Both the position numbers and the translations under genes were made by a program. Positions 9,148 through 38,953 of a stretch of DNA of 64,000 nt are shown piece by piece (the first letter of the stretch is position 1; each line of letters opens with the position of its first letter). The notes below the pieces were generated by a model. It worked only from the letters and a program-made list of their open reading frames with translations. It did no database searches and had not been told where the DNA came from. Source of the stretch: a virus (Duplodnaviria; Caudoviricetes); the IMG/VR virus record IMGVR_UViG_3300031992_000018, positions 104,027 through 168,026 of that record; one strand, 5' to 3'.

Positions 9148-9534
9148 TTAATCCAAGTGATCAAAAGCTACTGGTTCACCATTCCAATAATAACAATATG
9201 TATATTTATCTAATTTTACATCTCCAAATTTATTTATTCTTGCTCTCTTTTCTTCTGTTTCTTTTGTATCAAATTCATCAGGAATTGGAACTGATTTACC
9301 AGCTTGACCATTACCAGATACAATTTTATCTTTTAATTTTCTAAAAGTAAATGTTTTACCACTAATTTTAACTATTTTATAAAAATCAATTATAATCATA
9401 CTATAACTAAAATTAGAATAAATAATATCACCTACTTCCCAATTTTCTGGTTTTGATTTATCTCTTTCTTCAACAGTTTCAATATCTTTATTAAGATGTA
9501 ATTTTTCTATTATATATTTATCTAATTGTTTCAT
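9148..9534 (-). CDS. Leader-bearing protein (MKQLDKYIIEKLHLNK) with a small beta-rich domain
   Basis: Start moved to MKQL; WEVGDII...FYKIVKISGK domain. Confidence 0.7.
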   Translation of the reverse strand: MKQLDKYIIEKLHLNKDIETVEERDKSKPENWEVGDIIYSNFSYSMIIIDFYKIVKISGKTFTFRKLKDKIVSGNGQAGKSVPIPDEFDTKETEEKRARINKFGDVKLDKYTYCYYWNGEPVAFDHLD

Positions 9535-9544
9535 ATTATATATA

Positions 9545-11053
9545 TTAATATTTATGTCCTCCTCTTGCATATTGAAGTCTCATTTGTTCTTCAATCATTG
9601 ATTCTGCATCTTCATCAGTAAAATCAGGATCATCATCACAAGCAGTAAATATCTTTGCACAAAGAACAAATGTTCTTAATGATAATTCCATACTTGATCC
9701 TTTTTCATTTAATTCTTTTAAATAATTATAAGCCTTTATTTTTGCTTTAGGCAATAATATTTTATTTTCAATATTTGGAAGTAATTTCTTTATAATTGAT
9801 AAAATCTCATCATTTGAAAAATCAATATCTTGCATAAAACATCTATTTCTTAAAGCTGTATCAAGTTGTCCTGCACGATAATTTGTTATAACAATAACAC
9901 CAGATTTAATTCTACATTTCTTTGGAATTTCTTGACCGTCATCATCAGTAATTTTACCAGCAATTCCATAAGTAACAAGTCTTCCTTCTGGAGATGTATC
10001 TGAATCAAGAGCTGCTTTAAGAATATTGATACAGTTTTCATCTGCTTGTGGACCTACAAGAGAGTCAGCATCATCAATTAAAATAATATCATTACTTTCT
10101 CTAAATCCATAAAGAGTAGCATAAAGTCTTCTTGCTGTACATTTGCCTTTTATAGTACAAAGATTTTCTCCTTCAATATAATTAGATTCTTTAAGTTGTT
10201 TCTTTACTCTATATGTTTTACCAACACCAGGAGCTCCACAAAGAATAAGTGCTGGTTGACGACCTTTAATAACTAAAGAAATATATTTTTCCATTTCTTT
10301 AAATATCTGGTCAGGATCTTTTCTATTACTTTGAGCATCTTTAATTTCCTTAGAATCTTCAATTTCAACTCTTTTACCTTTAGCAATTGATACTTTAATA
10401 TCTTCTGAACCACCTTCTTTTATATATTTATAAATATCTTTAACATCATTTTCGATATTATTTAAATTAGAGTTTGAAATTTTACTCTTAGCAATAAATG
10501 ATTCATGAATTAAATCTTTATCAATTTTAGAAAAAATATAATTTAATTTACCAATATTATATTTAGATTCTTTTAAATTATCTTCTTTATTAGATAATTT
10601 TTTAACATCTTCTTCACTAATAGAATATTTTTTAGAATTTACTATTGTCCATACTACTGGTAATAATTTAGCTATATTTGTACCTAAAGTATAAATAGAT
10701 AAATCTGCTTTTCCTTTACCAGACCAATATACATCTAAATCTTTAAAAAAGTCTATAGAATATACATCTACAGAATCATTATCATTAATCCAATTAAATT
10801 GAAAAAATGAAGTTTTAGCATAATCTGATTTATCAATAACAATAAATTGTTTTGATGTACATTTTTCACCATCAATTGTAGTATCTACAAAACCAATAAG
10901 AGGAACAAGACCATTGATATGCTTCTTTAAAATTGATTCAATTTTTTCAATAGCCGCATCAATATCTTTTTCTCTAAATGATTCATTTAATTTTTCTTTA
11001 TTTTGTATATCTTGATTACGCTTATTTACGAATTCTAAAAAATTATATCTCAT
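9545..11053 (-). CDS. AAA+ ATPase
   Basis: Walker A GAPGVGKT, Walker B IILIDDAD, sensor ITN, ALRNR arginine finger; late promoter 11072-11084. Confidence 0.8.
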   Translation of the reverse strand: MRYNFLEFVNKRNQDIQNKEKLNESFREKDIDAAIEKIESILKKHINGLVPLIGFVDTTIDGEKCTSKQFIVIDKSDYAKTSFFQFNWINDNDSVDVYSIDFFKDLDVYWSGKGKADLSIYTLGTNIAKLLPVVWTIVNSKKYSISEEDVKKLSNKEDNLKESKYNIGKLNYIFSKIDKDLIHESFIAKSKISNSNLNNIENDVKDIYKYIKEGGSEDIKVSIAKGKRVEIEDSKEIKDAQSNRKDPDQIFKEMEKYISLVIKGRQPALILCGAPGVGKTYRVKKQLKESNYIEGENLCTIKGKCTARRLYATLYGFRESNDIILIDDADSLVGPQADENCINILKAALDSDTSPEGRLVTYGIAGKITDDDGQEIPKKCRIKSGVIVITNYRAGQLDTALRNRCFMQDIDFSNDEILSIIKKLLPNIENKILLPKAKIKAYNYLKELNEKGSSMELSLRTFVLCAKIFTACDDDPDFTDEDAESMIEEQMRLQYARGGHKY

Positions 11054-16772: not shown

Positions 16773-17459
16773 ATGAAAACAATTAATGAATATATTAGAT
16801 TTTCAGTTAATAATATAAACTATAATATTATTGACGAAGCATTAGCTCTTGAATCAGAAGGATGGACAATGCAAGATGTTTATGAGACATTATTTATAAC
16901 TGATATTTATGATAATGATCAATTAAATGAAGGTTGGATTGGTGATAAACTTAGAAAATTAGCTGGTGCGGCTGATACTGCAGAAGATAAAGCAAAAGAA
17001 ACAATAAATAAAACAAAAGAAGGTATTAAAAATGCTAAAGATGCAGTTGTTGCAAAATTTGATGAATGGTCAAATGAAGCAAAAGAAGCATTCAATAATT
17101 TAAAGAAATGGGCCGGAAGTAAATGGGATAAAGTTAAAAAAGATATAACTGAAATAATTGGAAAAATTGAAGCAGCATTTAATAAAATAAAAGATACAAT
17201 AAAAAATATTGTTGTTTCTATTGGTAAACTTAGTAAAGATATTGTTTTAACAACAGTAGGTCTTTTAATTTTATTAGTAAAACAAATAATAGCATTGATT
17301 GATAAAGGTTCAGATTTAGTTATGAAATTATTTAATGATGCAAAATTATTTGCTGGTAATGCAATATTTAATTTAGGTGCTGTTGCCGCTAAGAAAGCTG
17401 GTTTATCTCAAGAAGAATTAACAAATGTTTTAACTTTAACATTTTCTTATGCAAAATAA
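16773..17459 (+). CDS. Leader-bearing helical protein with hydrophobic C-terminal part
   Basis: MKTINEYI...LNEGWIGDKLRKL; late promoter 16741-16753; amphipathic helical repeats. Confidence 0.7.
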   Translation: MKTINEYIRFSVNNINYNIIDEALALESEGWTMQDVYETLFITDIYDNDQLNEGWIGDKLRKLAGAADTAEDKAKETINKTKEGIKNAKDAVVAKFDEWSNEAKEAFNNLKKWAGSKWDKVKKDITEIIGKIEAAFNKIKDTIKNIVVSIGKLSKDIVLTTVGLLILLVKQIIALIDKGSDLVMKLFNDAKLFAGNAIFNLGAVAAKKAGLSQEELTNVLTLTFSYAK

Positions 17460-17478
17460 TTTAAATATTATAAATATA

Positions 17479-17510
17479 AAAAAGAGCTCTTTTTAAAGAG
17501 CTCTTTTTTT
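17479..17510. terminator. Bidirectional terminator
   Basis: aaaaagagctctt-tta-aagagctcttttt. Confidence 0.75.
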
Positions 17511-19170
17511 ATTTTTCTTCTCTACTATGTTTATTGTATTCTGATGAATGAAATTCTTCTTCAAAAGTATGTTTAGCACCAGGATTAATCATATAAGCCA
17601 TTTTTGCCATTATATCTCTATTAAGAAGAACTGGTGTTGATTTCTTTCTATTATCAACAAGAGCAAAATCTACATTAAGTAATTTTCTTGAACCAATCTG
17701 AATACAAGGTACTATTACAGTAACTCTTTCTTCACGTACTTGTCCAACTATAGGGTTTGAAACCCCACTTTTCTTAAATCTATATGTTTTACCATTTATA
17801 ACTGCTGATACTTTATCTCCAACTACTTCAACTGATTCACAACCAATTGTAGAAGCTTTAGCGCCATTACCTGTATCAAATTTAGCTTCAAGTTCAAATT
17901 CTGAATCATTATCCATAATAAACTTCATATTTTCAATATAACCAATTGATTTAGGTGCAAGTACAAGCTCATTAATATCATTGATTGCATCAAGAAGTAT
18001 CTTACAGAAATTTTCTCCAATTACTTCAGAAATACCTTCTGTACCTGGAGAGCAGTTATATTCAAGAACAACATTATCTCCAATCTCTGGATTAGAACCT
18101 TTTACAAGAGGCATAATATCAACAGCACACCAAGGCATACCTGAAATCTTTGCTACATTTAATGCAATATCTTCTTGTTCTTTAGTAATTTCAACTTTTT
18201 CAGCTTCTGCACCAAGAGATACATTACTTCTGAAATCACCACCAAGTTTCTTTCTCTTCATACATGCAAGAATTGTTTGTTTTGTTCTGCTTGTAAGAAC
18301 ATGCACTCTGATATCACCACCATCAGCTTCTTCTTTCTTTTGAAGAAGTAATTCTCTTTCAGGGTCAATAGCAAATATTGCTTGAAGAATTGCAAGAATA
18401 CCTTTACCTGTTGTCATGAATACACCTGTTCCACCATGACCATCAAGAATCTTTACAACATATTCTCTCTTTTCATCTTCTTCTTTATTTTCACCTACTT
18501 CTTTATAAATAAGTTTAAGTTTCTTCTGAAGAGATTCTTCACCTTTAGATACATCTTTTGAAGAAAGAAGACAGAATTTTGGTTGTGGAATATCATATCT
18601 TTTCATAAGAACAGCTGAAGCATATTTATTACTTGCTCTTTTAGCTGCTTGAATTGGATTAAGAACAAAAAGACCCCAATCTTGAAGTTCTTTAATACAT
18701 TCCATACATTCTTCACTATCTTGTGCACCAAGACGTGCAATAACTATTGTATCTATATTTGATTGATCTGTTATAGTAAATTTCTCTTTAGAATCTTTAA
18801 TTTCAATTTTCTTATCATCTGCACTATAATCAACTTCTTCAGAAACAAATGTTATAAGATTTACATCTGTATTTTTAAGTGCATCTTGAAGGTTTTTAAG
18901 AGTTTTATTTTTTGAAGCATCTCTTTCATTTGTAAAGAAGATAATATTCTTAAAGAAATATTCTTCATTTCTTTTTATTTTTTCAGCATTCTGTACAGTA
19001 TCATTTTTTGCACCTAATTGTTCAGCTGCTTGATCAACTGCTTGGTCTTCTGAACCAGGTTTTTCTGGATTTTTTTCTGCACCAGTATTTTCTTCTGCTT
19101 CTAAAATAGATTCTACTTCATCTATTGATTTAATAAATTTTGATTCTAAAAGTTCAGTTAAAGTTTTCAT
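17509..19170 (-). CDS. rimK: RimK-like ATP-grasp ligase fused to a C-terminal retropepsin-like (RimB-type) protease, with leader
   Basis: NKY, VVKILDGHGGTGV, GDIRVHV, FRSNVSLG, VDI, LEYNCSPG; C-terminal AKFDTGN...VLLNR. Confidence 0.8.
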   Translation of the reverse strand: MKTLTELLESKFIKSIDEVESILEAEENTGAEKNPEKPGSEDQAVDQAAEQLGAKNDTVQNAEKIKRNEEYFFKNIIFFTNERDASKNKTLKNLQDALKNTDVNLITFVSEEVDYSADDKKIEIKDSKEKFTITDQSNIDTIVIARLGAQDSEECMECIKELQDWGLFVLNPIQAAKRASNKYASAVLMKRYDIPQPKFCLLSSKDVSKGEESLQKKLKLIYKEVGENKEEDEKREYVVKILDGHGGTGVFMTTGKGILAILQAIFAIDPERELLLQKKEEADGGDIRVHVLTSRTKQTILACMKRKKLGGDFRSNVSLGAEAEKVEITKEQEDIALNVAKISGMPWCAVDIMPLVKGSNPEIGDNVVLEYNCSPGTEGISEVIGENFCKILLDAINDINELVLAPKSIGYIENMKFIMDNDSEFELEAKFDTGNGAKASTIGCESVEVVGDKVSAVINGKTYRFKKSGVSNPIVGQVREERVTVIVPCIQIGSRKLLNVDFALVDNRKKSTPVLLNRDIMAKMAYMINPGAKHTFEEEFHSSEYNKHSREEK

Positions 19171-19259
19171 ATATATTTTATAAAAAATTTATCTATATAA
19201 AAATAAAAGATAAAAGAATAAATATCTATATTATATAAGAAATATATTTAAGATAATGA

Positions 19260-19829
19260 ATGATAAATTCAAAGTTAAATGATTATTTATATAATATAGA
19301 TAATTTAAGAAATATTGACCGTTATCAAATAGCTCATAAGATTACAAAAGAAACAGTTGCTGAACATTCTTTTTTTGTTGCTTCTTATATATTAAAACTT
19401 CATGATTATTATAATTTTAATTTAGAGAAGGCACTTACTATGGGTTTACTTCATGATTTTAGTGAAGTATTTATTAGTGATGTACCTCATCCAATTAAGA
19501 TGGCTTTTCCTGATATAAATAAACAATTAGAAAAAGCTGAATATGATATGAATAGTAAATATATATCTAAGGATTTTGCTGATAATCTTGAAGAATTTAA
19601 TAATCTTACGACTGTTGAAGGTAAAATTGTAAATGTAGCTGATATTCTTTCAGTTATATCATATTCTAAATATGAAATATCTCTTGGAAATTCTCAATAT
19701 ATGAAAGATGTTCTTAATAGAGGATTAATGAGAATTAAAGATGCTCTTGATTTAATTGAAGATAATATAAAACCAGAATATAAAACATTTGATATATTAT
19801 CTGAAATTATTGATTTTTCAAAACGATAA
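19260..19829 (+). CDS. HD-domain 5'-deoxynucleotidase/dNTPase (YfbR-like)
   Basis: RY...ETVAEHSF, LLHDFSEVFISDVPHPIK, VADIL. Confidence 0.85.
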   Translation: MINSKLNDYLYNIDNLRNIDRYQIAHKITKETVAEHSFFVASYILKLHDYYNFNLEKALTMGLLHDFSEVFISDVPHPIKMAFPDINKQLEKAEYDMNSKYISKDFADNLEEFNNLTTVEGKIVNVADILSVISYSKYEISLGNSQYMKDVLNRGLMRIKDALDLIEDNIKPEYKTFDILSEIIDFSKR

Positions 19830-19901
19830 TTATATATTAGATTATATGGAGAAATATAGTCTATATAATCTATGTTTTAAAATATATTACAAATTAAATA
19901 T

Positions 19902-22900
19902 ATGAGTAAAAGAAAAGATCTTAAAAAGATTATGGTCATAGGTAGTGGTCCAATTGTAATTGGTCAAGCTGCCGAATTTGATTATGCTGGTACACAAGCA
20001 TGTCTTGCACTTAAAGAAGAAGGATATGAAGTTATTCTTGTAAATTCTAATCCAGCAACAATTATGACAGATACTAATATTGCTGATAAGGTTTATATGG
20101 AACCTTTGACTTTTGATTATGTATCTAAAATTATTTATAAAGAACGTCCAGATGGTATTGTACCAGGTCTTGGTGGTCAGACAGGATTAAATCTTGTAAC
20201 AGAACTTTCACAAAAAGGTGTTCTTGATGAATGTGGTGTAGAAGTTCTTGGTACATCATTTGAAAGTATAAATATTGCTGAAGACAGAGAAAAATTTAAA
20301 AACTTTTGTATTGATAATAATATTCCTGTAATTCCTTCGGAGATTGTACATGATATTCAAGGTGCTATTAATGCAGCATCTTCAATTGGATATCCTGTTG
20401 TTCTTCGTCCAGCATTCACTCTTGGTGGAACAGGTGGTGGATTTGCTTATAATGAAGATGAATTAAAGGAACATATGATAAATGCTCTTAATCTTTCACC
20501 TATTCATCAGGTACTTATAGAAAAGAGTGTAAAAGGTTATCGTGAGATTGAATTTGAAGTAATGAGAGATAACAATAACAATGCTATATGTATTTGTGGA
20601 ATGGAAAATGTTGATCCTGTTGGAATTCATACAGGTGATTCAATTGTTGTTGCTCCATGTATAACAGTTTGTAAAAATGATTATGAAAGGTTAAAAAATG
20701 ATGCTTTAAAGATTATTAAGAAATTACAAATTGCTGGTGGATGTAATGTACAGTTTGCTCTTTCTCAAGAAGATGAAGATAAATATTATATTATTGAAAT
20801 TAATCCTCGTGTATCTCGTTCATCAGCTCTTGCATCAAAAGCATCTGGTTATCCTATTGCAAGAGTAACTGCTAAGATTGCTGTTGGTTATAATCTTAAT
20901 GAAATAAATCTTGATGATCATACAGCATTGTTTGAACCTTGTCTTGATTATATAATTGCTAAATTCCCAAGATTTCCATTTGATAAATTTGAAGAAGCTA
21001 AAGATGAACTTTCAACTCAGATGAAAGCAACTGGTGAAGTTATGTCAATTGGTAAAACTCTTGAAGAAGCTTTCTTAAAGGGTCTTAGAAGTCTTGAAAC
21101 AAAAACATATCATTTATATAATTCTAAATTTGATCATTTTAAGAAACAAGAACTTATTGAATATATTTCAACTGATGCATATGATAAGATTTTTGCTATA
21201 GCACAACTTCTTAGGATTGGTGTATCTGTAAAAGAAATATTTAATAAGACAATGATATGTGAAGATTTTTTAGTAGCATTTAGAAATATTGTTGAATTTG
21301 AAGAGAAGGTAGAACATTATGGCAAAGATGAAAATGCTGATTTTGGTGATATAATTTATAGAGCAAAGTTATTAGGTTTTTCTGATGAAGAAATAGCTCA
21401 TCTTATAGATACAGATCCTTATGAAATTACTAAATATCGTTTAGATAATGGTTATGTACCAAAATATAGAATAGTTGATTGTTATTGTTATAGATATTCT
21501 ATTGATATAAATGGTAAAGAATATGAACATAAGAGATCAATTCCTTATTTCTATTCAACATATAATGATCTTGTAGAAAATGAATCAGTAAGAAGTAATA
21601 AAAAGAAAATCATAGTTCTTGGTTCTGGTCCTATACGTATTGGTCAAGGTGTAGAATTTGACTATTCTACAGTACATGCAATATGGGCTATCAAGAATAT
21701 GGGTTATGAAGCTATTATCATTAATAACAATCCTGAAACAGTTTCAACAGACTACACTATTTCTGATAAACTTTATTTTGAACCTCTTACTGTTGAGGAT
21801 GTAATGAATGTAATTAATTTTGAAAAACCTGATGGAGTAATTGTATCTCTTGGTGGACAAACAGCAGTAAATCTTGCTAATCCTCTTTCTAAGTTCAATA
21901 TTCCAATTATAGGTACTGGAATTGAAGCAATTAATAATGCTGAAGATAGAAAGATTTTTGAAAGCATTCTTGAAGAACTTAATATTCCTCAACCAAAAGC
22001 TATTGCTGTAACAAATATTGAAGATGGTTTAAAAGCTGCTAATGAAATTGGTTATCCAGTACTTGTTCGTCCAAGTTTTGTTCTTGGTGGTCGTGCAATG
22101 ATGATTGTTGGTAATGATGATACTCTTAAGCATTATCTTGCTAATGCTGTTGCTCTTGATGAAAAATCTCCAGTTCTTATTGATAAATATATACAAGGTA
22201 TTGAGTGTGAAGTAGATGCAATATGTGATGGAGAAACAGTACTTATTCCAGGTATAATGGAACATATTGAAAGAACTGGTGTTCATTCTGGAGACTCTAT
22301 AAGTATATATCCTTCAGTTAAATTAACTGATATAAATAAACAAAGGATTATTGAATATACAAAGAAACTTGGTGTAAGAATTGGTATTAAAGGATTATTT
22401 AATATTCAATATATTGCTAATGGTGATGATATTTATGTTATTGAGGTAAATCCAAGAAGTTCTAGAACAATTCCATTCTTAAGTAAGTCTACTAATATTC
22501 CTATGGCAAAAATTGCTACAGAAATAATGTTAGGTAAGAAATTAGTTGATTATGGATATCCTGAATATATTCCTGAAAAGAATTCATATTTTATCAAAAC
22601 TCCTGTATTTTCATTTAATAAACTTATAGGTGTTGAGTCATATTTGTCACCAGAGATGAAATCTACAGGTGAGGCGATAGGTATTGATAAAACTTTCACA
22701 AAAGCTCTCCAGAAGAGTTTGTGCGCCTCTGGATTAAAGATTAAAGACCATGGTACGATATTCGTAAGTGTATATGATGATGATCGTGAAGAAGTATTAC
22801 CTATTATAAAGAGATTTTATGATTTAGGATTTAATATTGAATCTATAAATGGTACAGCTACTTTCTTAAAAGAACATGGTATACATACTAAGACTCTTAA

Positions 22901-23123
22901 GAATCTTTCATATTATGATCTTATTAGAAATGGACACTTTACATATATAATCAATAGGATTAATGTAAATCAGCATTCATCTCATCTTGATGATTATGGT
23001 ATTCGTCACGTTGCTACTGAATGTAATGTACCAGTATTTACATGTCTTGATACAGTAAATGCACTTCTTGATGTTATTGAAGATATAACATTAAACGTTA
23101 ATGATATTACTAAATTCAATTAA
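19902..23123 (+). CDS. carB: Carbamoyl-phosphate synthase large subunit
   Basis: IGSGPIVIGQAAEFDYAGTQAC, two ATP-grasp halves (EINPRVSRSSALASKA; EVNPRSSRT), C-terminal MGS-like domain. Confidence 0.97.
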   Translation: MSKRKDLKKIMVIGSGPIVIGQAAEFDYAGTQACLALKEEGYEVILVNSNPATIMTDTNIADKVYMEPLTFDYVSKIIYKERPDGIVPGLGGQTGLNLVTELSQKGVLDECGVEVLGTSFESINIAEDREKFKNFCIDNNIPVIPSEIVHDIQGAINAASSIGYPVVLRPAFTLGGTGGGFAYNEDELKEHMINALNLSPIHQVLIEKSVKGYREIEFEVMRDNNNNAICICGMENVDPVGIHTGDSIVVAPCITVCKNDYERLKNDALKIIKKLQIAGGCNVQFALSQEDEDKYYIIEINPRVSRSSALASKASGYPIARVTAKIAVGYNLNEINLDDHTALFEPCLDYIIAKFPRFPFDKFEEAKDELSTQMKATGEVMSIGKTLEEAFLKGLRSLETKTYHLYNSKFDHFKKQELIEYISTDAYDKIFAIAQLLRIGVSVKEIFNKTMICEDFLVAFRNIVEFEEKVEHYGKDENADFGDIIYRAKLLGFSDEEIAHLIDTDPYEITKYRLDNGYVPKYRIVDCYCYRYSIDINGKEYEHKRSIPYFYSTYNDLVENESVRSNKKKIIVLGSGPIRIGQGVEFDYSTVHAIWAIKNMGYEAIIINNNPETVSTDYTISDKLYFEPLTVEDVMNVINFEKPDGVIVSLGGQTAVNLANPLSKFNIPIIGTGIEAINNAEDRKIFESILEELNIPQPKAIAVTNIEDGLKAANEIGYPVLVRPSFVLGGRAMMIVGNDDTLKHYLANAVALDEKSPVLIDKYIQGIECEVDAICDGETVLIPGIMEHIERTGVHSGDSISIYPSVKLTDINKQRIIEYTKKLGVRIGIKGLFNIQYIANGDDIYVIEVNPRSSRTIPFLSKSTNIPMAKIATEIMLGKKLVDYGYPEYIPEKNSYFIKTPVFSFNKLIGVESYLSPEMKSTGEAIGIDKTFTKALQKSLCASGLKIKDHGTIFVSVYDDDREEVLPIIKRFYDLGFNIESINGTATFLKEHGIHTKTLKNLSYYDLIRNGHFTYIINRINVNQHSSHLDDYGIRHVATECNVPVFTCLDTVNALLDVIEDITLNVNDITKFN

Positions 23124-23166
23124 TAAAAATTACTATATTAAATAAAATTAAAATAATTTATATAAT

Positions 23167-24945
23167 ATGAAGAGTTTACTTTTAACACTTGGACATAATT
23201 CATCCGCAATTTTTGTAGAAGATGGTAAAACACCTATTGGTTATGAAGAAGAAAGATTAACAGGTATTAAATCTGATTCACAGTTTCCTACTGATGCAAT
23301 TCATGAAATTGCTAGAAATGTAGGTATTAAGAATATGAAAGGTTGTAAGATATTTATTTCACATTGGTTTGATTTTATTCCTAATGTAATACCTAATAAA
23401 TATATTACTCAGACTGATATTGACAATCTTAAAGAAATTTCTGATGATATTACCTTTGTATCTCCAGAATTTACACATCATGATGCTCATGCTTATGCTG
23501 GTAAGAGTTTCTTTGATTATCATTTCTCAAAGTTAAATACTGATCCTTATTGTGATGTTTCTCTTAAACTTCAGCAGAATAAAGATATTTATGTTATTGT
23601 AGCTGATGGTTTTGGTAATAATGGTGAGGTTCTTTCAGTTTATAAAATTAATGATTATTTAAATAATAGATTTAGTAATCTTAATCTTGAACATAGAGTT
23701 TATGGATATAAGAATTCTATTGGTCTTATGTATCAGTATGCAACTTCTTATGTTGGTATGAAAGAAAATCAAGATGAGTATAAATTCCTTGGATATGAAG
23801 CTCATATTGATGAATATCTTAATAAATATAAGATTGATATTCTTGATGCATATATCAAAGAACTTGTAAATACTCTTTGGGAAGGATTTGAAAGAGATAC
23901 TAATACTAATGTATATAAAAAGTGTGAATATTTAATTAATTTTGATTCACTTAAAGAAACTAAAGAATATTTCCATAATATCTTTAGAGAAGCATATGAG
24001 ACAGTATGGAAAGCTGATGATAAAGCAAAATATTCAAAAGAAGATAATGAATTTATTCAGAGAAGTATTGTAGCATATTATCTTCAGCAGACAGTAGAAC
24101 AATTCTTTGGTAAGGTTGTTGAAAAGTTTAATATACAGAATGTAGTTGTAGTTGGTGGTTCATTCTATAATGTAAAACTTAATAATTATATTTTTGAACA
24201 TACTAATGGTGTATATTGTGCAATGCCTCTTGCAGGTGACCAAGGTGCTGCTATAGGTCTTTATTACTATTATACTGGTGAACAATTCAATTTTGAAACA
24301 CTTTGTATTGGTAAGAGAAATTTCTATGGTGCTGAAAAGGTATTTAAGAAGAATTTCTATAGAGAAGCTACTGATGAACTTGCAAAAGAAATAGCAAGAA
24401 AGATTGCTGATGGATATATTGTAGATCTTGTACATGGTTCTATGGAATTTGGTCCTCGTGCTCTTATGCATACATCAAGTTTATTTATTCCTACAGTAGA
24501 GAATACTGCTCAGAATAATTCAAATAATCTTAGAAATGAAGTAATGCCTTGTGCGCCAGTTCTAACAAAAAAGAATGCTGAATTTTTATTTGGTAAAGAA
24601 AGTATTAATCGTGTTGTTGGTAGTGATGAATTTATGATTCTTACACATACTTATAAGAGAGGATATTCAGAACTTTATGGTGGTGTAATGCATAAGATTG
24701 TCCTTAAAGATGGTTATTCTGGTCGTCCACAAATTGTAAGAGAAGGAACATTTGAAGAGAAGATTCTTAAATATGTTGAAGAACTTGCAGATATTAAATG
24801 TCTTGTCAACACATCTTATAACAAGCATGGTACACCTATTCTTTATTCAATGAAGCAAATTAAAGATGACTACAATTTCCAAGTTGAACATTCACAAATG
24901 AATGGTTACAAGAAGTCTCCTTTACTTTATGTAGTTGAAGATTAA
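23167..24945 (+). CDS. O-carbamoyltransferase (CmcH/NodU family)
   Basis: GHNSSA, EEER, HHDAHA, DGFG, AGDQGAAIG, MEFGPRAL, RPQ, VNTSYNKHGTPI. Confidence 0.92.
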   Translation: MKSLLLTLGHNSSAIFVEDGKTPIGYEEERLTGIKSDSQFPTDAIHEIARNVGIKNMKGCKIFISHWFDFIPNVIPNKYITQTDIDNLKEISDDITFVSPEFTHHDAHAYAGKSFFDYHFSKLNTDPYCDVSLKLQQNKDIYVIVADGFGNNGEVLSVYKINDYLNNRFSNLNLEHRVYGYKNSIGLMYQYATSYVGMKENQDEYKFLGYEAHIDEYLNKYKIDILDAYIKELVNTLWEGFERDTNTNVYKKCEYLINFDSLKETKEYFHNIFREAYETVWKADDKAKYSKEDNEFIQRSIVAYYLQQTVEQFFGKVVEKFNIQNVVVVGGSFYNVKLNNYIFEHTNGVYCAMPLAGDQGAAIGLYYYYTGEQFNFETLCIGKRNFYGAEKVFKKNFYREATDELAKEIARKIADGYIVDLVHGSMEFGPRALMHTSSLFIPTVENTAQNNSNNLRNEVMPCAPVLTKKNAEFLFGKESINRVVGSDEFMILTHTYKRGYSELYGGVMHKIVLKDGYSGRPQIVREGTFEEKILKYVEELADIKCLVNTSYNKHGTPILYSMKQIKDDYNFQVEHSQMNGYKKSPLLYVVED

Positions 24946-24949
24946 TTTA

Positions 24950-24980
24950 AAAAAGCCTCTAAATTATTAGAGGCTATTTT
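24950..24980 (+). terminator. Intrinsic terminator
   Basis: agcctctaa-atta-ttagaggct followed by T-run. Confidence 0.65.
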
Positions 24981-25014
24981 TCTATATTAATATATATTAA
25001 ATTATAGAATAGTT

Positions 25015-25647
25015 ATGAATTGTCCAAAGGTTTTAGTATTTACAGGTGGTTGTTATTCAGGTAAAACAACTTCAATGCAAGTTATAAAAGAAATACTTGA
25101 AGAAAAAGGTAAAAATGTTATATTTCTTGATGAACTTATTCGTCGTCATAAGATAGGTTCTATTGATGAGATTCGTCGTGATCCTAATAAATATATGGAA
25201 TTACAGAATGATATCATTAGAGGTAAAATGGATAGTGAAAAATATTCATATAAAAACTTTAATGAAAATACTGTTATTCTTGTTGATAGAAGTGTAACAG
25301 ATTCATTGTTCTATTTAACATTTTATGTTGATAAGAATTCATTAGATATTGAACATCAAAAGCAATTTATAACTTTATTTAATGATTTAAATGATTATCT
25401 TGATACAGTATCAGATATATATACTTATATATTTGAATTTACTCCTTTAAAAGAAGTAATTGAAAATGATAATTTTAGACCACAAAATCTAAAAGATTTA
25501 CAAAACATAGAATATAAAATGATTAAGAAATATAATCTTTTATATTTTCATAATCATAGTGGATATATGAGTATTGATTTAAATAATGTATCTAAAGATA
25601 ATATGAAAGAATATTGGAAAAATTTACTTGATTGGATGAATATATGA
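25015..25647 (+). CDS. P-loop nucleotide kinase-like protein
   Basis: FTGGCYSGKTT; ILVDRSVTDSLFY. Confidence 0.75.
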   Translation: MNCPKVLVFTGGCYSGKTTSMQVIKEILEEKGKNVIFLDELIRRHKIGSIDEIRRDPNKYMELQNDIIRGKMDSEKYSYKNFNENTVILVDRSVTDSLFYLTFYVDKNSLDIEHQKQFITLFNDLNDYLDTVSDIYTYIFEFTPLKEVIENDNFRPQNLKDLQNIEYKMIKKYNLLYFHNHSGYMSIDLNNVSKDNMKEYWKNLLDWMNI

Positions 25648-26420
25648 TATTTCCAGATATAGAATATTTACATTTAACTAATAATTGGAAAAGAATATTT
25701 GAAGATTTTAGTTATAAATGTGAAATATATAAAGATTATTATGAATGTTTAAACTATTCATATAAAATATCTCCAATGATTGATTATTGCATGAGTTATT
25801 TTACTAATCTATTTGATTTAGATAAAGCAAAAGCAATATATAATTGGTATAGAAATCATGATTCAAGAGATCATTCTATTGAAGAATATTTTGATGAATA
25901 TAAAAGATGTACAGATGAAACTCATTTAGATTTTAATTCTAATTATGGGTTATATGCTTATTCTCCAGAAGGTCTTGATAAATGTATAAAACGTCTTGGA
26001 GAAAATAATGATACTCGTCAAGCAATGTTTTGTATAAATAACAATGAAGCAATGTCTGATAGAAGTATAGATAAACTTTGTACTAATACTGTTCAATTTT
26101 ATATAAGAAGAAATAAATTAATTATGGTAGTACAAATGAGAGCAAGTAATATGATTACTCTTTTACCATATGATTCATTTATGTTTTGTTATTGGTATTT
26201 TTATGTATTTAATAAATTATATAATGAATATGATTTAAAAAATCTTGAACTTAATTATATTTATATTAATGTATCAAGTATTCATTACTATATAGATAAT
26301 TTAGAAAAGATTAATAAGGATAATAAAGACGTTAAATTTATCAATGATTTATTTGATGATTATAAAGATCCTGATTTTATAAATATATTTGATAAAAAGA
26401 TAAATGGACAATACAGTTGA
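25644..26420 (+). CDS. Divergent thymidylate-synthase-fold protein
   Basis: NSNYG, DTRQA, DKLCTNTVQFYIR, MRASN...PYD; start moved to the ATG overlapping the upstream stop. Confidence 0.8.
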   Translation: MIFPDIEYLHLTNNWKRIFEDFSYKCEIYKDYYECLNYSYKISPMIDYCMSYFTNLFDLDKAKAIYNWYRNHDSRDHSIEEYFDEYKRCTDETHLDFNSNYGLYAYSPEGLDKCIKRLGENNDTRQAMFCINNNEAMSDRSIDKLCTNTVQFYIRRNKLIMVVQMRASNMITLLPYDSFMFCYWYFYVFNKLYNEYDLKNLELNYIYINVSSIHYYIDNLEKINKDNKDVKFINDLFDDYKDPDFINIFDKKINGQYS

Positions 26421-27111
26421 TATTTTAAATCAATTTAAAGAAAAGTATAAAAATGGTGAATTCAGATATATTAATGGAACTACAAAAACAGTAGAAATTC
26501 AAAATGCACATTTTATATGTGATAAAGATTATATTTTAAGAGAACCAAATTATGAATATGCTAGAAGAGAGATTGCATGGTATGATACAATGTCTTTATA
26601 TGTAAAAGATATTCCTGATAAGATACCAGTAATTTGGCAGAATGTTTCTGATATAAATGGTAAGATTAATTCAAATTATGGTTGGTGTATTTATTCAGAA
26701 GAAAATGGTTCACAATATAAAAATTGTTTATATAATTTAATTCATGATACTTGTTCAAGACAAGCAGTAATGATATATACTAGACCATCAATGCATAATG
26801 ATGCTAATAAAAACCATATGCATGATTTTATGTGTACATTTGCAACACAGTGTTTTTTAAACAAAGTTGAAGATGGTTATTCTTTAAAGTATATAGTTTA
26901 TCAAAGAAGTAGTGATGCTGTATTTGGTTTTAATAATGATCATCTTTGGCATAAAGAAGTACAAAAAAGATTAGCTGATGATTTAGAGAAAGAATTTAAT
27001 AAAATAAAAAATGAAAGTGATGAACATATCCATGTACATTGTGAACCAATAGAATTTAATTGTGGATCAATTCATGTTTATGAAAGACATTTTCAATATT
27101 TGGAGGATTAA
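26404..27111 (+). CDS. dCMP hydroxymethylase (T4 gp42-like)
   Basis: INSNYGW, SRQAVMIYTRPSM, DFMCT, RSSDAVFGFNND (Asp at the dCMP-specificity position), GSIHVYERHF. Confidence 0.9.
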   Translation: MDNTVDILNQFKEKYKNGEFRYINGTTKTVEIQNAHFICDKDYILREPNYEYARREIAWYDTMSLYVKDIPDKIPVIWQNVSDINGKINSNYGWCIYSEENGSQYKNCLYNLIHDTCSRQAVMIYTRPSMHNDANKNHMHDFMCTFATQCFLNKVEDGYSLKYIVYQRSSDAVFGFNNDHLWHKEVQKRLADDLEKEFNKIKNESDEHIHVHCEPIEFNCGSIHVYERHFQYLED

Positions 27112-27114
27112 TTT

Positions 27115-27633
27115 ATGAGAAATTTTGATTATCAATATCTTAGAATTGCTAAAATTTGGAGTGAGAATTCTTATTCAAGAAGAAATAAAGTAGGTGCTAT
27201 TATAGTAAAAGATGGTATGATTATTTCTGATGGTTATAATGGTACACCAGCAGGATTTGATAATAATTGTGAAAATGAAGTAAAATGTGATGTTGATTGG
27301 GATGAACTTATTTCTGCATTAGATAATGGATCTTCTGTATGTGCTGCATATAATAGAGATTGTAATAAATGTCCTCATCATTATCTTGTTACAAAACCAG
27401 AAGTACTTCATGCAGAAGCTAATGCTATTACAAAAGTAGCAAAATCTACTAATTCTTCAGATGGAAGTACATTATATGTAACATTATCTCCTTGTATTGA
27501 ATGTGCAAAACTTATTATTCAAGCAGGTATTAAAAGAGTTGTATATAATGATGTTTATAGAAATACTGACGGTCTTGAATTACTTAAGAAAGCAGGTATT
27601 GAATTAGTACAAATAAAAGATATAAATGATTAA
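27115..27633 (+). CDS. dCMP deaminase
   Basis: KVGA, GYNGTP, HAEANAI, SPCIECAK. Confidence 0.92.
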   Translation: MRNFDYQYLRIAKIWSENSYSRRNKVGAIIVKDGMIISDGYNGTPAGFDNNCENEVKCDVDWDELISALDNGSSVCAAYNRDCNKCPHHYLVTKPEVLHAEANAITKVAKSTNSSDGSTLYVTLSPCIECAKLIIQAGIKRVVYNDVYRNTDGLELLKKAGIELVQIKDIND

Positions 27634-27818: not shown

Positions 27819-27859
27819 TTCTATATTAATATAATGTAACGTTTACAAAAAGAAAGAAT

Positions 27860-29553: not shown

Positions 29554-30309
29554 ATGAATATACTTATAACAGGAAACAGAGGATTTATTGGTGGACATTT
29601 ATCTAAATATTTAAAGGATAAAGGTCATAATATTATAGGTATAGATAGAAAAGATGGTAATGAAGTATTAGATATTAATGAAGATACTTTAAAAGATATT
29701 GATATTATAATCCATTTAGCAGCACAAACATCAGTTTGGAATACTAATATTGAATTAATAGAAAATGATAATATAAAATCTTTTATTCATATATTTAATT
29801 TATGTAAAAAACTTAATAAAAGATTTATATATGCAAGCAGTTCATGTTCGATAAATATAACATCGATGTATGGATTAAGTAAATATTTTGATGATTTATA
29901 TTTTGAAATTTATAAATGGGATAAATGTATTGGATTAAGATTTCATAATGTATATGGTAAAGATTCAAGAGAAGATACATTATTAGGAATTTGTTTAAAT
30001 AATTCAGAAATTACATTATATAATAATGGACTTAATTATAGACATTTTACTTATATAGATGATGTATGTAAAAGTATAGAAATGTCTTTTAATTTAAAAT
30101 CTTGTATATATAATGTATTTAATCCTCAAGAAAATTCAGTATTAGAATTTGTCAATGAAGTTTTAAAATATAAAGATTTAAAAATTAATTTAATTGATTC
30201 TATAAGAGAACTTGATAAAGAAAAACAGCTTATAGATGATACTAAAATAAATTTAATAGAAAATAATTATAAAAATATAAAAATAGGCATAAATGAGATA
30301 TTTAGGTAA
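29554..30309 (+). CDS. NAD-dependent epimerase/dehydratase
   Basis: ITGNRGFIG, HLAA, YASSS, YGLSK, RFHNVYG. Confidence 0.88.
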   Translation: MNILITGNRGFIGGHLSKYLKDKGHNIIGIDRKDGNEVLDINEDTLKDIDIIIHLAAQTSVWNTNIELIENDNIKSFIHIFNLCKKLNKRFIYASSSCSINITSMYGLSKYFDDLYFEIYKWDKCIGLRFHNVYGKDSREDTLLGICLNNSEITLYNNGLNYRHFTYIDDVCKSIEMSFNLKSCIYNVFNPQENSVLEFVNEVLKYKDLKINLIDSIRELDKEKQLIDDTKINLIENNYKNIKIGINEIFR

Positions 30310-33531: not shown

Positions 33532-34452
33532 ATGAAATGTTGTATAATTGCCATAGCAAAAAAAGAAAATAAGTATATTCAAGAATGGGTTAATTATCAT
33601 CTTAATTTAGGATTTGATAATATAATAATTTGTGATAATAATGATACAGGTGATGAAAAAATATCAGATGTAATTAATGATGATAAGGTAATTATTTTAA
33701 ATTATTTTAACTTTAAAAATATACAACCAACTGCATATACAAAATGTTTTTTAAAATATAAAGATACATATGATTGGCTGGCATTTATAGATATAGATGA
33801 ATTTATTATATTAGATAAAAAATACGATAATAATATAAAGAATTTTTTATCAGATAATATATTTAAAAATGCAGATATTATAAGATTATGTTATAAGTTT
33901 TTTACTGGTGGAAATAAGTTAGATGTTGAAAATAATGACTATTCTTTAATGAGTAGATTTACTGAAGAATTTGATACTATAGAAAATACATGGGGTAAAT
34001 CAATTATTAAAAACACAATTAAATATATTCCTAATACTAGATTTTATGGGCACGGGTATGCAACTAATAAAAATAATGTAGCTTATTCGGCTGATGGAAA
34101 TATATGTAAAAATGATTGGATTATTGTAAGTGAAGAACCTATATATGTTAATGCTTGGATAAATCATTATCCAACAAAAACAATTGGAGAATATGTAAGA
34201 CAAAAATATTTTCGTGGTGGTCCAAATAATAACAACAATAAATATAAATCATTAAATTATTTTTTCAGATATAATAAAAAAACAGATAAATTATTTAAAT
34301 ATGGTATTAAATTAATTAATTCATATAAACAAGAAATAGAGAAGAAAAAAATCAAAACTAATAAACAAGAAATAGAGAAGAAAAAAATCAAAACTAAAAT
34401 TAATACTTTAGTTATTTCTAATAATTTATTAATAAGTAAAGAGATTGATTAA
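33532..34452 (+). CDS. Glycosyltransferase (GT-A fold, GT2/GT92-like)
   Basis: AIAKKENKYIQEWVNYH..LGFD, DWLAFIDIDEFI, INHY.TK. Confidence 0.85.
   Translation: MKCCIIAIAKKENKYIQEWVNYHLNLGFDNIIICDNNDTGDEKISDVINDDKVIILNYFNFKNIQPTAYTKCFLKYKDTYDWLAFIDIDEFIILDKKYDNNIKNFLSDNIFKNADIIRLCYKFFTGGNKLDVENNDYSLMSRFTEEFDTIENTWGKSIIKNTIKYIPNTRFYGHGYATNKNNVAYSADGNICKNDWIIVSEEPIYVNAWINHYPTKTIGEYVRQKYFRGGPNNNNNKYKSLNYFFRYNKKTDKLFKYGIKLINSYKQEIEKKKIKTNKQEIEKKKIKTKINTLVISNNLLISKEID
34325..34396 (+). repeat. Exact 36-bp tandem duplication
   Basis: ataaacaagaaatagagaagaaaaaaatcaaaacta twice. Confidence 0.9.
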
Positions 34453-34506: not shown

Positions 34507-35145
34507 ATGATAAATAAAGAATTTATAAATAATTATTTAAATAATAATGAAATTACAAAATTACAATTAGGTTGTGGTATATTTACAATTAATAATTGGT
34601 TAAATACTGATAAAGATACATATAAAATAAATAATAATATAATATATTTAGATGTAACTAAACAATTTGAATTACCTGATAATTCATTTAATTATATATA
34701 TTCTGAACATCTTTTTGAGCATTTAACATATTTTGAAGGTTTAAATATGCTAAAAGAATGTTATAGAATTTTAAAGCCTGGTGGAATAATTAGAATAGCT
34801 ACACCAAATTTAGAATTTCTTATTGATTTATATTTTCATCCAGAGAAGGAGATAAATAAATTATATATAGAATTTGATGGTAAAAGAACAAATCAACCTA
34901 ATGATGCAATATATGCTATAAGTCATTTTCATACTGATTGGGGTCATAAAATTATATATGATTATAAATCATTAAAAACTTTTTTAGAAAATGTTGGTTT
35001 TAAAAACATTATACAATGTGAAGTTAGTAAAAGCTCACATCCAGAATTAAATGACATTGAGCAACACCCAAAACATTTCAAAAGAATGGAAGTTAAATAT
35101 GATTTTAATTCTTTACAAACAATGGTTTTAGAGGCTGAAAAATAA
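34507..35145 (+). CDS. SAM-dependent methyltransferase
   Basis: LQLGCG, YSEHLFEHL, CYRILKPGG.IRIATP. Confidence 0.85.
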   Translation: MINKEFINNYLNNNEITKLQLGCGIFTINNWLNTDKDTYKINNNIIYLDVTKQFELPDNSFNYIYSEHLFEHLTYFEGLNMLKECYRILKPGGIIRIATPNLEFLIDLYFHPEKEINKLYIEFDGKRTNQPNDAIYAISHFHTDWGHKIIYDYKSLKTFLENVGFKNIIQCEVSKSSHPELNDIEQHPKHFKRMEVKYDFNSLQTMVLEAEK

Positions 35146-36233: not shown

Positions 36234-36518
36234 ATGATTAGATTAGTTGAATTTGATAATATAAATTTTCTTAAAGATAATCCTAGTTACATTAAAAGGG
36301 TTTATGAACACAGATATAAAGATACCAATTATGCAATTATTCAAGAAGGTAAAAATACTTGGGTAATATATATAATTGATGATAACCTTGGTGTATTTGA
36401 ATTATTTGAAGGATATTGGACTAAAAAGAAAGCTATTGAAGAAATAGAGAGTGGAAATCTTAAAAGAAAGCTTTTTGAACAAAAAATTTTATATGATAAA
36501 ATAGTTGAAGTATTATGA
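36234..36518 (+). CDS. Hypothetical protein
   Basis: Operon packing; start moved to first ATG. Confidence 0.55.
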   Translation: MIRLVEFDNINFLKDNPSYIKRVYEHRYKDTNYAIIQEGKNTWVIYIIDDNLGVFELFEGYWTKKKAIEEIESGNLKRKLFEQKILYDKIVEVL

Positions 36519-37018
36519 ATATAGCATTAGTTGCCCATGATGGGCGTAAAAAAGAGTTAATGGAATGGGTAAAGTATAACTGGGAAACCCTTTCACAACA
36601 TAATTTATTTGCAACAGGTACAACTGGAAAACTTGTTATACAGACTCTTACTGAATCACATTTAGATATGATTGGACTTGGTAATTATCCTGATTTTTAT
36701 CCAAGTAAATTACATGATACATATTCAAATAAGGTAACTTGTTTATTAAGTGGTCCTCTTGGTGGTGATCAGCAAATTGGAGCAATGATAGCAGAAGGAA
36801 AAATTGATGTACTTATTTTCTTCTGTGATAATCTTATTATGCAAGGCCATCAAAATGATGTATCAGCACTTACAAGACTTGCATCTTTGTATAATATTGC
36901 ATTTGCAACAAATCGTACAACTGCAGATATGATATTAACATCACCATTATTTAAAGATCCTAATTATAAAAGAATTCTTCCACAAGCAATCGAAAATTAT
37001 AAAAATAGAAGTATATAA
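36515..37018 (+). CDS. mgsA: Methylglyoxal synthase
   Basis: IALVAHD..K, ATGTTG, SGPLGGDQQIGA, H..DV.AL.R, ATNRTTAD. Confidence 0.95.
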   Translation: MNIALVAHDGRKKELMEWVKYNWETLSQHNLFATGTTGKLVIQTLTESHLDMIGLGNYPDFYPSKLHDTYSNKVTCLLSGPLGGDQQIGAMIAEGKIDVLIFFCDNLIMQGHQNDVSALTRLASLYNIAFATNRTTADMILTSPLFKDPNYKRILPQAIENYKNRSI

Positions 37019-37428: not shown

Positions 37429-38397
37429 ATGAAAATATTAGTAACTGGAGCAAATGGACAATTAGGTAGATGTATTTATGATATTATGCATGAAACATTT
37501 ACTTACAAAAATAATGAATATATTTTTGCTTCTCATTCAGAATTTGATATTACTGATATCGGAAGTATGGAAAAATATTTTTTCTATAATCCGGATATAA
37601 AATGTATTATCAATTGTGCTGCATATACTAATGTAGATGGTGCTGAAAAAGATCAATATACAGCATTTTATGTAAATTCAAGAGGTGTACAAAATCTTGT
37701 ACAACTTTGTGAAAAATATGATATAATGTTATTCCATATTTCTACTGATTATGTATATAAAGACTATCAATCATTAGATAGTTTATGTAGTGAAGATTCA
37801 GAAATTGAACCAATTAATATCTATGGACAATCAAAAAGAGATGGAGAATTACATATAATTAATTCTAATTTAAAGAATTGGTATATTTTTAGAACATCTT
37901 GGTTATATTCTGAATATCCTGGAAATTTCTTTACAAAGATTTTAGAAAAAGCAAAAAATAGTTATTCATTAGGTGTTGTTACAGATGAAGTTGGATGTCC
38001 TACTTATGCAAAAGATTTAGCATCAATGTTAATATGCATTATAGAACATGAATATTATAAAACAATATTAGAAAGTGGTATTTATAATTATAGTGGTCTT
38101 GGTTTTACTTCAAGATATGATTTTGCTTCTTCAATAATTGCAGCTGGATATAATATTAAAGTTAATGATAAAAAAATTGGAATTCATATACCAATCTATC
38201 CTATAAAACAAAAAGATTTAAATTTACCAGCTAAAAGATCACAATTTGTTGTTTTAAATAATCAAAAAATTTCAAAAATACCTGTTTTTAGAGATAATTG
38301 GATATTTGATTTACAATCATGTATAAATAATTATGAAAAGAAATTAAATAAAGAAAATAATGATTATAGAATAATGTATGGAAAAGACTTATATTGA
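37429..38397 (+). CDS. rfbD: dTDP-4-dehydrorhamnose reductase
   Basis: VTGANGQLG, NCAAYTNVD.AE, ISTDYV, YGQSK, RTSWLY, GCPTYA.DLA. Confidence 0.92.
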   Translation: MKILVTGANGQLGRCIYDIMHETFTYKNNEYIFASHSEFDITDIGSMEKYFFYNPDIKCIINCAAYTNVDGAEKDQYTAFYVNSRGVQNLVQLCEKYDIMLFHISTDYVYKDYQSLDSLCSEDSEIEPINIYGQSKRDGELHIINSNLKNWYIFRTSWLYSEYPGNFFTKILEKAKNSYSLGVVTDEVGCPTYAKDLASMLICIIEHEYYKTILESGIYNYSGLGFTSRYDFASSIIAAGYNIKVNDKKIGIHIPIYPIKQKDLNLPAKRSQFVVLNNQKISKIPVFRDNWIFDLQSCINNYEKKLNKENNDYRIMYGKDLY

Positions 38398-38953
38398 ACC
38401 ATTTAGAATTACAAATGAAGTATTTAATGATGTAAGAGGTGGATTTTCTCCATTTAATTTTGCTAAAGATTTTAGTGATTTTAATATATATCAATTAAAT
38501 ACAGTTACTACAAAAGAACCATATACATTTAGAGGTATGCATTGGCAAGAGCCTCCTTATGCACAGGGTAAACTTATTCGTTGTACACTTGGAAAGATAA
38601 TTGATTTTGCTGTAGATATTAGATGTGGAAGTCCTAATTTTGGTAAAAGTTATGGTTTTGTACTTTCAAATCCACAAGAATGGGTATTTATTCCAAGATG
38701 TTTTGCTCATGGTTATTTAACTCTTCCTCATAATCTTGGAAATACTTATCCAACAACTGTTGAGTATCTTGTTGATAATCATTATAATCCTCAAAGTGAA
38801 AGAGGAATGTTTATGACTAAAGAGATTAATGATTGTATAAATGCAGAACTTCCAAATGGTATAACAAATATAATTTTTAATGAACGTGACCTTAATTGGC
38901 CTACAATAAGTGAAATAGAAACAAATTTTAGATATGAACCAGAAGAACAATAA
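38378..38953 (+). CDS. rfbC: dTDP-4-dehydrorhamnose 3,5-epimerase
   Basis: F.D.RG.F, RGMHWQ, QGKLIRC, VDIR.GSP.FG, FAHGY.TL. Confidence 0.92.
   Translation: MEKTYIEPFRITNEVFNDVRGGFSPFNFAKDFSDFNIYQLNTVTTKEPYTFRGMHWQEPPYAQGKLIRCTLGKIIDFAVDIRCGSPNFGKSYGFVLSNPQEWVFIPRCFAHGYLTLPHNLGNTYPTTVEYLVDNHYNPQSERGMFMTKEINDCINAELPNGITNIIFNERDLNWPTISEIETNFRYEPEEQ

Follow-up and report, generated by a model that had tools for sequence, protein, structure and literature searches.

A carB gene next to a phage carbamoyltransferase suggests a dedicated donor supply for cytosine carbamoylation in an AT-rich jumbo phage

Why would a phage carry a full-length carbamoyl-phosphate synthase large subunit (CarB) and encode it directly in front of an O-carbamoyltransferase (CT)? 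The question is raised by the 64,000-nucleotide stretch of DNA analyzed here (the window), which is the final 64 kb of the 168,026-bp IMG/VR virus record IMGVR_UViG_3300031992_000018, a sequence of 25% GC whose completeness is estimated by CheckV at ~59%. The record appears to come from an AT-rich, T4-related jumbo phage, probably of gut or rumen Bacteroidales, and we propose that a five-gene module of carB, CT, a kinase, a thymidylate synthase (TS) paralog, and a hydroxymethylase on balance probably carbamoylates hydroxymethylcytosine, with CarB feeding the donor. When the cluster was compared with isolated phages by megablast, no match was obtained. The preliminary description of this DNA, made from the letters alone, had listed seven contiguous genes, and open reading frames, profiles, and alignments place all seven where it had put them, with catalytic motifs intact. 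The features of the locus are as follows:

19260 to 19829, plus strand: HD, a YfbR-like 5′-deoxynucleotidase of 189 aa (PF12917, phrog_7076, metal and catalytic residues)
19902 to 23123, plus strand: CarB, carbamoyl-phosphate synthase large subunit of 1073 aa (NF003671, TIGR01369, alignment to E. coli CarB)
23167 to 24945, plus strand: CT, an O-carbamoyltransferase of the phage TS-linked 5-hydroxymethylcytosine (5hmC) carbamoyltransferase-type family, 592 aa (Carbam_trans_N and Carbam_trans_C, phrog_1601)
24954 to 24975, plus strand: terminator-like hairpin (consensus match only)
25015 to 25647, plus strand: P-loop kinase of thymidylate kinase/deoxynucleoside kinase (TMPK/dNK) fold, 210 aa (motifs, AlphaFold2 (AF2) model, Foldseek)
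25632 to 26420, plus strand: CT-linked thymidylate-synthase-fold paralog (TSp), 262 aa (phrog_160 2e-14, AF2 model, Foldseek)
26404 to 27111, plus strand: T4 gp42-type dCMP hydroxymethylase, 235 aa (2.6e-51 to PDB 1B49)
27115 to 27633, plus strand: dCMP deaminase, 172 aa (PF00383 1e-23, phrog_174 2e-55, HAE and PCIEC (PCxxC) motifs)
19226 to 24989, plus strand: CTATATWA promoter-like boxes, with 3′ ends 25-33 nt before the ATGs of HD, carB, CT, and the kinase

The surroundings of six CarB proteins of the phage clade were read, on the contigs L003, L004/L005/L006, L109, L188, and L189, with one further contig being without DNA. CT lies directly 3′ of carB in every contig examined, and the kinase, TS paralog, and hydroxymethylase come next wherever the contig extends far enough; in the window, 43 nt separate carB from CT and the same promoter-like CTATATWA box precedes both. 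The outer flanks fall into three contexts, namely a minus-strand RimK gene and HD on one side and the deaminase on the other (the window and L109), minus-strand RimK and 198-aa genes with a 288-aa gene on one side and a 251-aa gene on the other (L003-L006 and L189), and neither RimK nor HD, with gyrB downstream (L188). Since the flanks differ in this way, the conserved unit consists of the five genes carB, CT, kinase, TS paralog, and hydroxymethylase, without HD and the deaminase. carB is also under strong purifying selection, with a dN/dS of 0.076 between L003 and L004 and of 0.12 between the window and L003. Searches for carA and for glutamine amidotransferase (GATase), ornithine transcarbamylase (OTC), and aspartate transcarbamylase (ATCase) genes covered the whole 168,026-bp record, that is, ~59% of the genome by CheckV. 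Neither OTC/ATCase-family genes nor pyrB or other pyrimidine or arginine genes were found in it, leaving CT as the sole encoded consumer of carbamoyl phosphate. The preliminary description had taken CarB as a supplier of donor for DNA modification, and this coupling is now backed by an adjacency conserved in three contexts, by purifying selection, and by the lack of other pyrimidine or arginine genes. That CarB feeds CT is the best-supported reading, and we regard it as fairly probable given the conserved linkage and the selection on carB.

CarB could instead be a generic auxiliary metabolic gene that boosts host pyrimidine or arginine synthesis for the replication of a large genome, and that sits at this place because nucleotide genes cluster. 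Its derivation from a pyrimidine operon, the retention of all four of its domains including the allosteric one, the nucleotide-metabolism genes around it (HD, kinase, deaminase, and ThyX at 41043), and the lack of CarB in most CT phages would all agree with such a role. However, pyrB/OTC, carA, and other pyr genes are absent from the 168 kb, the carB-CT junction is kept while both outer flanks have been swapped, CT is the only enzyme encoded there to use carbamoyl phosphate, and neither tblastn against isolated phages nor the IMG/VR scan yielded a bona fide phage carB without CT, and we therefore consider this role unlikely. In that alignment-based scan we found 13 other carB loci, with a GC of 41-43% and, in the ten matches that were nearly full-length, an identity of 48-55%; carA lay just upstream in 5/5 tested, and CT was present in none. 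The tblastn matches of CarB in isolated-phage records were mostly small unannotated or bacterial-like records with 40-54% identity, and they were rejected as phage carB and judged to be host DNA. Both the carAB loci of IMG/VR and the matches in isolated-phage records are read as cellular DNA on this basis.

The linkage looks different when it is approached from CT. Among 80 CT-related IMG/VR loci (31-53% identity), carB was found within 10 kb in 0/80, the kinase adjoins CT in ~40/80, and a TS homolog is present in most, suggesting that CarB is a lineage-specific optional booster and not a requirement. The co-occurrence of carB with the carbamoyltransferase, which had been put forward as a check, thus holds in one direction, as CT follows carB in all phage-clade contigs, and fails in the other, as CarB does not accompany this CT family generally. 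The closest relative of the window is L109, with which it shares 92-97% identity in the flanking genes, while CarB is 85% and CT 87% identical, suggesting that carB and CT have also been exchanged among phages. Two further observations concern CT itself, which is mosaic between L003 and L004 (13241-14983), with 88% identity against 99% for the flanking genes, and whose 3′ end shows a fall of DNA identity to 78% around window position 24500 in the comparison with L109.

Two genes of the variable flanks were considered and set aside. The RimK-like ATP-grasp ligase (553 aa, window 17509-19170, minus strand) is divergent from the cluster and starts with MKTLTELLES, a capsid-targeting-like leader; its L003 homolog is 68% identical with a different N-terminus. 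It was left out of the module, being kept in two of three contexts, absent in L188, and provided here with that leader. The 288-aa protein (L003:9138-10004, also in L004 and L189) occupies the position of HD in the window and overlaps the carB start by 4 nt. It was rejected as a CarA substitute or glutaminase, as it has no Pfam match and its look-alikes in a language-model comparison are viral nucleotidyltransferase-like clusters, and it is absent from this genome.

What kind of CarB is it, and where did it come from? The protein scores 1396.6 bits against NF003671 (cut-off 599) and 1360 bits against TIGR01369 (cut-off 1027), so that both equivalog cut-offs are passed, and its Pfam architecture (CPSase_L_D1, D2 twice, D3, and MGS) is that of a full-length, four-domain enzyme, residues 1-1023 of which align with E. 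coli CarB at E = 5.5e-285. Like the CarAB enzymes of E. coli and of the Bacteroidales pyr operons, it has the two ATP-grasp halves together with the oligomerisation and MGS-like allosteric domains, with 65% identity to Bacteroidales CarB; unlike them, it lies outside a pyr or arg operon, is encoded without a glutaminase subunit gene, and has strongly diverged oligomerisation and allosteric domains. The absence of carA from the window, noted in the preliminary description, extends to the whole record, where PF00988 (the CarA N-domain) and PF00117 (GATase) gave 0 matches, and no carA or GATase gene lies within 10 kb of carB in the phage-clade relatives. The small subunit that a glutamine-dependent CarAB holoenzyme would have encoded alongside is therefore missing from the 168-kb record.

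The nearest relatives of CarB form twelve protein clusters with 82-85% identity, encoded by AT-rich metagenomic contigs that reach 465 kb in length, followed by proteins of Bacteroidales, Alistipes, and Rikenellaceae with 64-65% identity. The nearest bacterial carB sits in a pyrC-carA-carB-pyrK-pyrD-pyrF-pyrE-pyrBI operon, in which carA overlaps the carB start, and the phage appears to have taken or kept carB by itself, with carA left behind. The capture is likely to be old, since GC3 is 0.10 in the phage gene and 0.82 in the nearest bacterial carB. Identity to the Bacteroidales proteins is 71-72% in the catalytic halves, in comparison with 39% in the oligomerisation domain and 50% in the allosteric domain, and the latter has twice the density of fixed differences between phage and bacterium, a divergence that hints at altered regulation. 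Elsewhere in the window (36515-37018) we observed a free-standing protein of 167 aa whose MGS-like domain (PF02142 2.6e-10) has the fold of the CarB allosteric domain, and a homolog of it is present in L109 at 16946-17443.

What would the carbamoyl group be used for? CT aligns with conserved HHDAH, ADGFG, PLAGDQG, and EFGPRAL motifs and is 46-51% identical to homologs in Bacteroides phage-like contigs of ~50 kb and 31-43% identical to others; its PDB matches are TobZ, GdmN, and NovN. Earlier work on a phage CT encoded on a TS-linked contig has shown that the enzyme needs carbamoyl phosphate and ATP and that it carbamoylates 5hmC in single-stranded DNA as well as 5hmdCTP (Yang et al. 2021, eLife, PMC8670742), a biochemistry that the preliminary description had cited correctly. 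As in that system, a two-domain CT stands here beside an N177D TS homolog and a dCMP deaminase; two N177D TS homologs lie within 2.2 kb downstream of CT, in keeping with the co-location described by Yang et al. 2021, and most CT-family loci also have a canonical N177D hydroxymethylase. The locus differs from that system in having CarB immediately upstream, a D169N paralog and a TMPK-like kinase between CT and the hydroxymethylase, no PRA-PH/MazG gene that we could find, and a T4-related jumbo phage as its carrier.

Characterized cellular members of the CT family, as the PDB matches indicate, carbamoylate sugars and antibiotics, and the substrate of CT might likewise be a sugar or other small molecule in place of DNA, as it is for NodU, TobZ, and CmcH, with CarB serving that pathway. 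A sugar-nucleotide and glycosylation set 2-11 kb downstream (29554-30309, 33532-34452, 34507-35145, 37429-38397, and 38378-38953) could be taken in the same sense. Its members are an NAD-dependent epimerase, a GT2-family glycosyltransferase, a methyltransferase, and RmlD and RmlC for dTDP-rhamnose steps; part of the set is kept in L109, and its targets could be DNA bases, proteins of the virion, or the surface of the host. However, the CT relatives in the 80 viral loci almost always adjoin N177D TS homologs, dNMP-type kinases, or dCMP deaminases, and the phage branch of the family acts on 5hmC (PMC8670742), making a small-molecule substrate very improbable.

The two enzymes that would deliver and activate the 5hmC nucleotide are found in the same cluster. 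The hydroxymethylase at 26404-27111 is ~50% identical to gp42, clades with T6 gp42 in a quick maximum-likelihood (ML) tree, and, when aligned to 1B49, keeps the equivalents of Glu60, Cys148, Asp171 of the folate site, and the cytosine-specifying Asp179. The kinase has a Walker A motif (GGCYSGKT), DRxxxDS, and an RP lid motif, and its AF2 model (pLDDT 92.2) has thymidylate kinases and Drosophila dNK as top Foldseek matches (probability 1.00, E ~1e-6, TM 0.55-0.62). The Pfam Thymidylate_kin match falls below the cut-off, and the TMPK-like kinase of RB69 is not significantly similar (E 0.53). Its P-loop, DR(x) motif, lid arginine, and TMPK/dNK fold nevertheless place the protein in the thymidylate/deoxynucleoside kinase superfamily, and the gene at 25015-25647 probably encodes a dNMP kinase acting on modified dCMP, so that the earlier suggestion of a kinase activating the modified dNMP is consistent with the modeled fold. 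Compared with the hmC pathway of T4 (gp42, gp1, gp56, cd, and the glucosyltransferases), the locus shares the gp42-type hydroxymethylase, the dCMP deaminase, and a dNMP-kinase step, and differs in the TMPK/dNK fold of its kinase, in the lack of a MazG-type dCTPase in the genome part examined, and in having CT in place of the glucose decoration of hmC. CT, the kinase, and the TS paralog have their closest counterparts in phages of Bacteroides fragilis (47%, 36%, and 49% identity, respectively), the hydroxymethylase is of the T4 type, and CarB is nearest to Bacteroidales bacteria, from which we infer that a T4-type hmC phage may have obtained its carbamoylation triad from phages of Bacteroidales, with the donor enzyme coming from the lineage of its host.

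From these genes we infer the substrate, the product, the nitrogen source, and the contribution of CarB to flux as follows. The hydroxymethylase would convert dCMP to 5hm-dCMP, which the kinase, together with a host NDP kinase, would raise to the triphosphate. CT, using carbamoyl phosphate and ATP, would then turn the 5-hydroxymethyl group into a carbamate, giving 5-carbamoyloxymethylcytosine, either on the nucleotide or on nascent DNA. CarB, taken from a pyrimidine operon of Bacteroidales with no accompanying carA and seemingly long adapted to phage codon usage, would raise the supply of carbamoyl phosphate from bicarbonate, ATP, and free ammonia, or would do so with borrowed host CarA. One carbamoyl phosphate would be spent per modified cytosine.

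The TS paralog (TSp) is the member of the module that this pathway leaves without a task. The preliminary description had listed it as a TS-fold protein and given it no interpretation; its presence stands, and it can now be described as a CT-specific D169N paralog. The AF2 model (pLDDT 89) is a confident TS fold, with a Foldseek match to T4 dCMP hydroxymethylase of 4.9e-13, and it fits T4 dCMP hydroxymethylase, MilA, and the HY126 dCMP hydroxylase (9IQU/9IQC) about equally. In E. coli ThyA numbering, Tyr94, Cys146, and Arg166 are kept, L143D and N177D are present, position 169 is Asn (in an MRASN motif), and Glu58 is lost, so that the active-site signature reads I/Y/D/C/R/N/D where canonical hydroxymethylases have E/Y/D/C/R/D/D. 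Wherever a single TS homolog stands beside a CT gene, it has this canonical set. A third active-site variant, Q/Y/D/C/R/E/D, with Gln58 and Glu169, was observed in the CT-linked TS homologs of L033, L034, L036, and L038 (near 9210-10001). In the quick ML tree the paralog belongs to a separate clade (22 rows, support 100) shared with paralogs of the ~50 kb Bacteroides-phage-like contigs, and 19/19 contigs that hold this clade in IMG/VR also carry CT and the kinase, so its function seems to be tied to the CT pathway. The canonical hydroxymethylase always accompanies it.

D169N has been reported as diagnostic of flavin-dependent 5-hydroxy-dCMP (5hodCMP) synthases, whose published reaction uses O2 (PMC13326640, 2026); nine further D169N homologs tested in that study all made 5hodC, and the clusters described there contain cognate TMPK-like kinases (PMC13326640). 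Like the synthases of RB69, DLP3, and HY126 (NAR 2026, PMC13326640), the paralog combines D169N, N177D, and L143D/E, the set that marks a 5hodCMP synthase in that work, and has a TMPK-like kinase next to it. It differs from them in forming a clade of its own, in coexisting with a canonical hydroxymethylase, in being linked to CT and not to arabinosyl or glycosyl transferases, and in having anaerobes as its likely hosts.

The paralog thus raises the question of whether the acceptor or end product is something other than 5-carbamoyloxymethylcytosine, with the paralog making or processing another nucleotide. The nucleotide could be 5-hydroxy-dCMP that is then carbamoylated or glycosylated, or the carbamate could be a leaving group for a further substitution. 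Several findings would fit this, as the paralog retains the nucleotide-binding set (Cys, Arg, and N177D) while E58 and D169 are lost, the D169N mark held in nine of nine further homologs with their cognate TMPK-like kinases (PMC13326640), the fold fits the HY126 hydroxylase (9IQU/9IQC) about as well as gp42, the clade is restricted to CT-kinase loci in all 19 contigs, and GT2, RmlC, and RmlD are encoded 6-11 kb downstream. On the other hand, the paralog does not group with RB69 gp48, which takes a long branch elsewhere in the quick ML tree (a weak result) and shares a pairwise identity of 27% with it, a canonical hydroxymethylase is always present too, and the CT of this family carbamoylates 5hmC in vitro (PMC8670742). 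In addition, the nearest cultured carriers of the paralog infect Bacteroides fragilis, an anaerobe, and such hosts argue against an O2-dependent hydroxylation; BF503P1 and BF486P2 are cultured phages of this species with CT, the kinase, the D169N paralog, and the hydroxymethylase. We therefore hold another acceptor or end product to be unlikely. It also seems doubtful that the paralog, its folate site disabled by D169N and the loss of E58, performs a new C5 reaction in which the carbamate is not the end point; the paralog might make 5-hydroxy-dCMP for carbamoylation to a 5-carbamoyloxy-cytosine, or the carbamate might be displaced through Cys-C6 chemistry to install another substituent. If so, CarB would pay for a stoichiometric activation, and the locus would represent a new route of cytosine hypermodification analogous to the phosphate-activated 5hmU pathways.

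Returning to 5hmC carbamoylation with CarB as the donor source, several points weigh against it. The case for DNA modification is built from genes, linkage, and selection and not from chemistry, and CT has been likened to the enzyme of Yang et al. 2021 by its family domains and gene context and not by direct sequence alignment. The strictly CT-linked paralog has no role in the proposed pathway, and the end product is therefore uncertain and may not simply be 5-carbamoyloxymethylcytosine. With carA absent from a record that is incomplete, so that carA may lie elsewhere in the genome, CarB would depend on ammonia or host CarA. Its retained allosteric domain and pyrimidine-operon origin also fit a general nucleotide-supply gene, and the CT pathway evidently works without carB in the other CT-bearing phage loci.

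The other two genes of the cluster lie outside the conserved module. HD matches PF12917 at 2.2e-21 (76.8 bits, cut-off 25.9) and phrog_7076 at 1.4e-22, and H36, H65-D66, E69, and D128 make up the H...HD..E...D pattern of YfbR-type enzymes; as its score against the NCBIfam equivalog is below the cut-off (51.7 vs 122), the assignment is YfbR-type at family level. HD is present in L109 (92% identity) and absent at the site in L003/L004/L189 and L188, and the deaminase is absent at its position in L003/L004 and L188. We take both as lineage-specific flanks, presumably accessory nucleotide-pool genes of a sub-lineage. The earlier idea that the two enzymes drain unmodified dC nucleotides is thereby weakened, both being missing at the site in two of three contexts. 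Similar HD nucleotidases recur beside TS-fold hydroxymethylases in other phages, e.g., the Bordetella phages FP1, MW2, and CN2, and this recurrence keeps a role of HD in depleting canonical dNMP plausible.

The deaminase can have the ordinary role of providing dUMP for dTMP synthesis through a route of the phage itself, since a flavin-dependent thymidylate synthase (ThyX, PF02511 7.7e-18, with an N-terminal extension of ~140 aa) is encoded at 41043-42041, ~13 kb downstream; in T4, cd supplies dUMP for dTMP. A MazG/PRA-PH dCTPase was not found in the genome part examined. A 232-aa dUTPase-family protein is encoded at 85717-86415 of the genome (L187:1123-1821), 18 kb upstream of the window, and matches the dut superfamily at 1.5e-10, below the cut-off. 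It is divergent, with an N-terminal extension of ~120 aa and the same CTATATWA box upstream, and is possibly a dUTPase/dCTPase for pool control.

The CTATATWA boxes of the cluster start at 19226 (HD), 19861 (carB), 23133 (CT), and 24982 (kinase). Of its 104 occurrences in the 168 kb genome, 25 have their end 18-33 nt before an ORF start, with 24 of these on the plus strand, and the motif looks like a promoter class common to nucleotide-metabolism genes. Further boxes in the window were noted at 27821, 29049, 34468, 41009, 45786, 54003, and 57326. The hairpin that follows the CT stop codon has a 9-bp stem with 4 GC pairs and then a T-run, and is terminator-like by consensus match only.

In the literature we searched, no report was found that ties a phage CarB or carbamoyl-phosphate synthase to DNA modification. 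Phages do encode donor-synthesis pathways for some DNA hypermodifications, e.g., those for NDP-sugars and preQ0. If CarB feeds CT as proposed, carbamoylating every cytosine would cost enough to select for a captured host gene of 3.2 kb, and an ammonia-rich gut may allow CarB to function with no glutaminase partner. The pair of carB and CT would then be a clean genomic marker of carbamoyl-cytosine genomes among the jumbo phages of the gut and rumen. As the CT-specific D169N paralog is also found in cultured Bacteroides fragilis phages, it offers an accessible lead to a possibly new pyrimidine chemistry in anaerobes.

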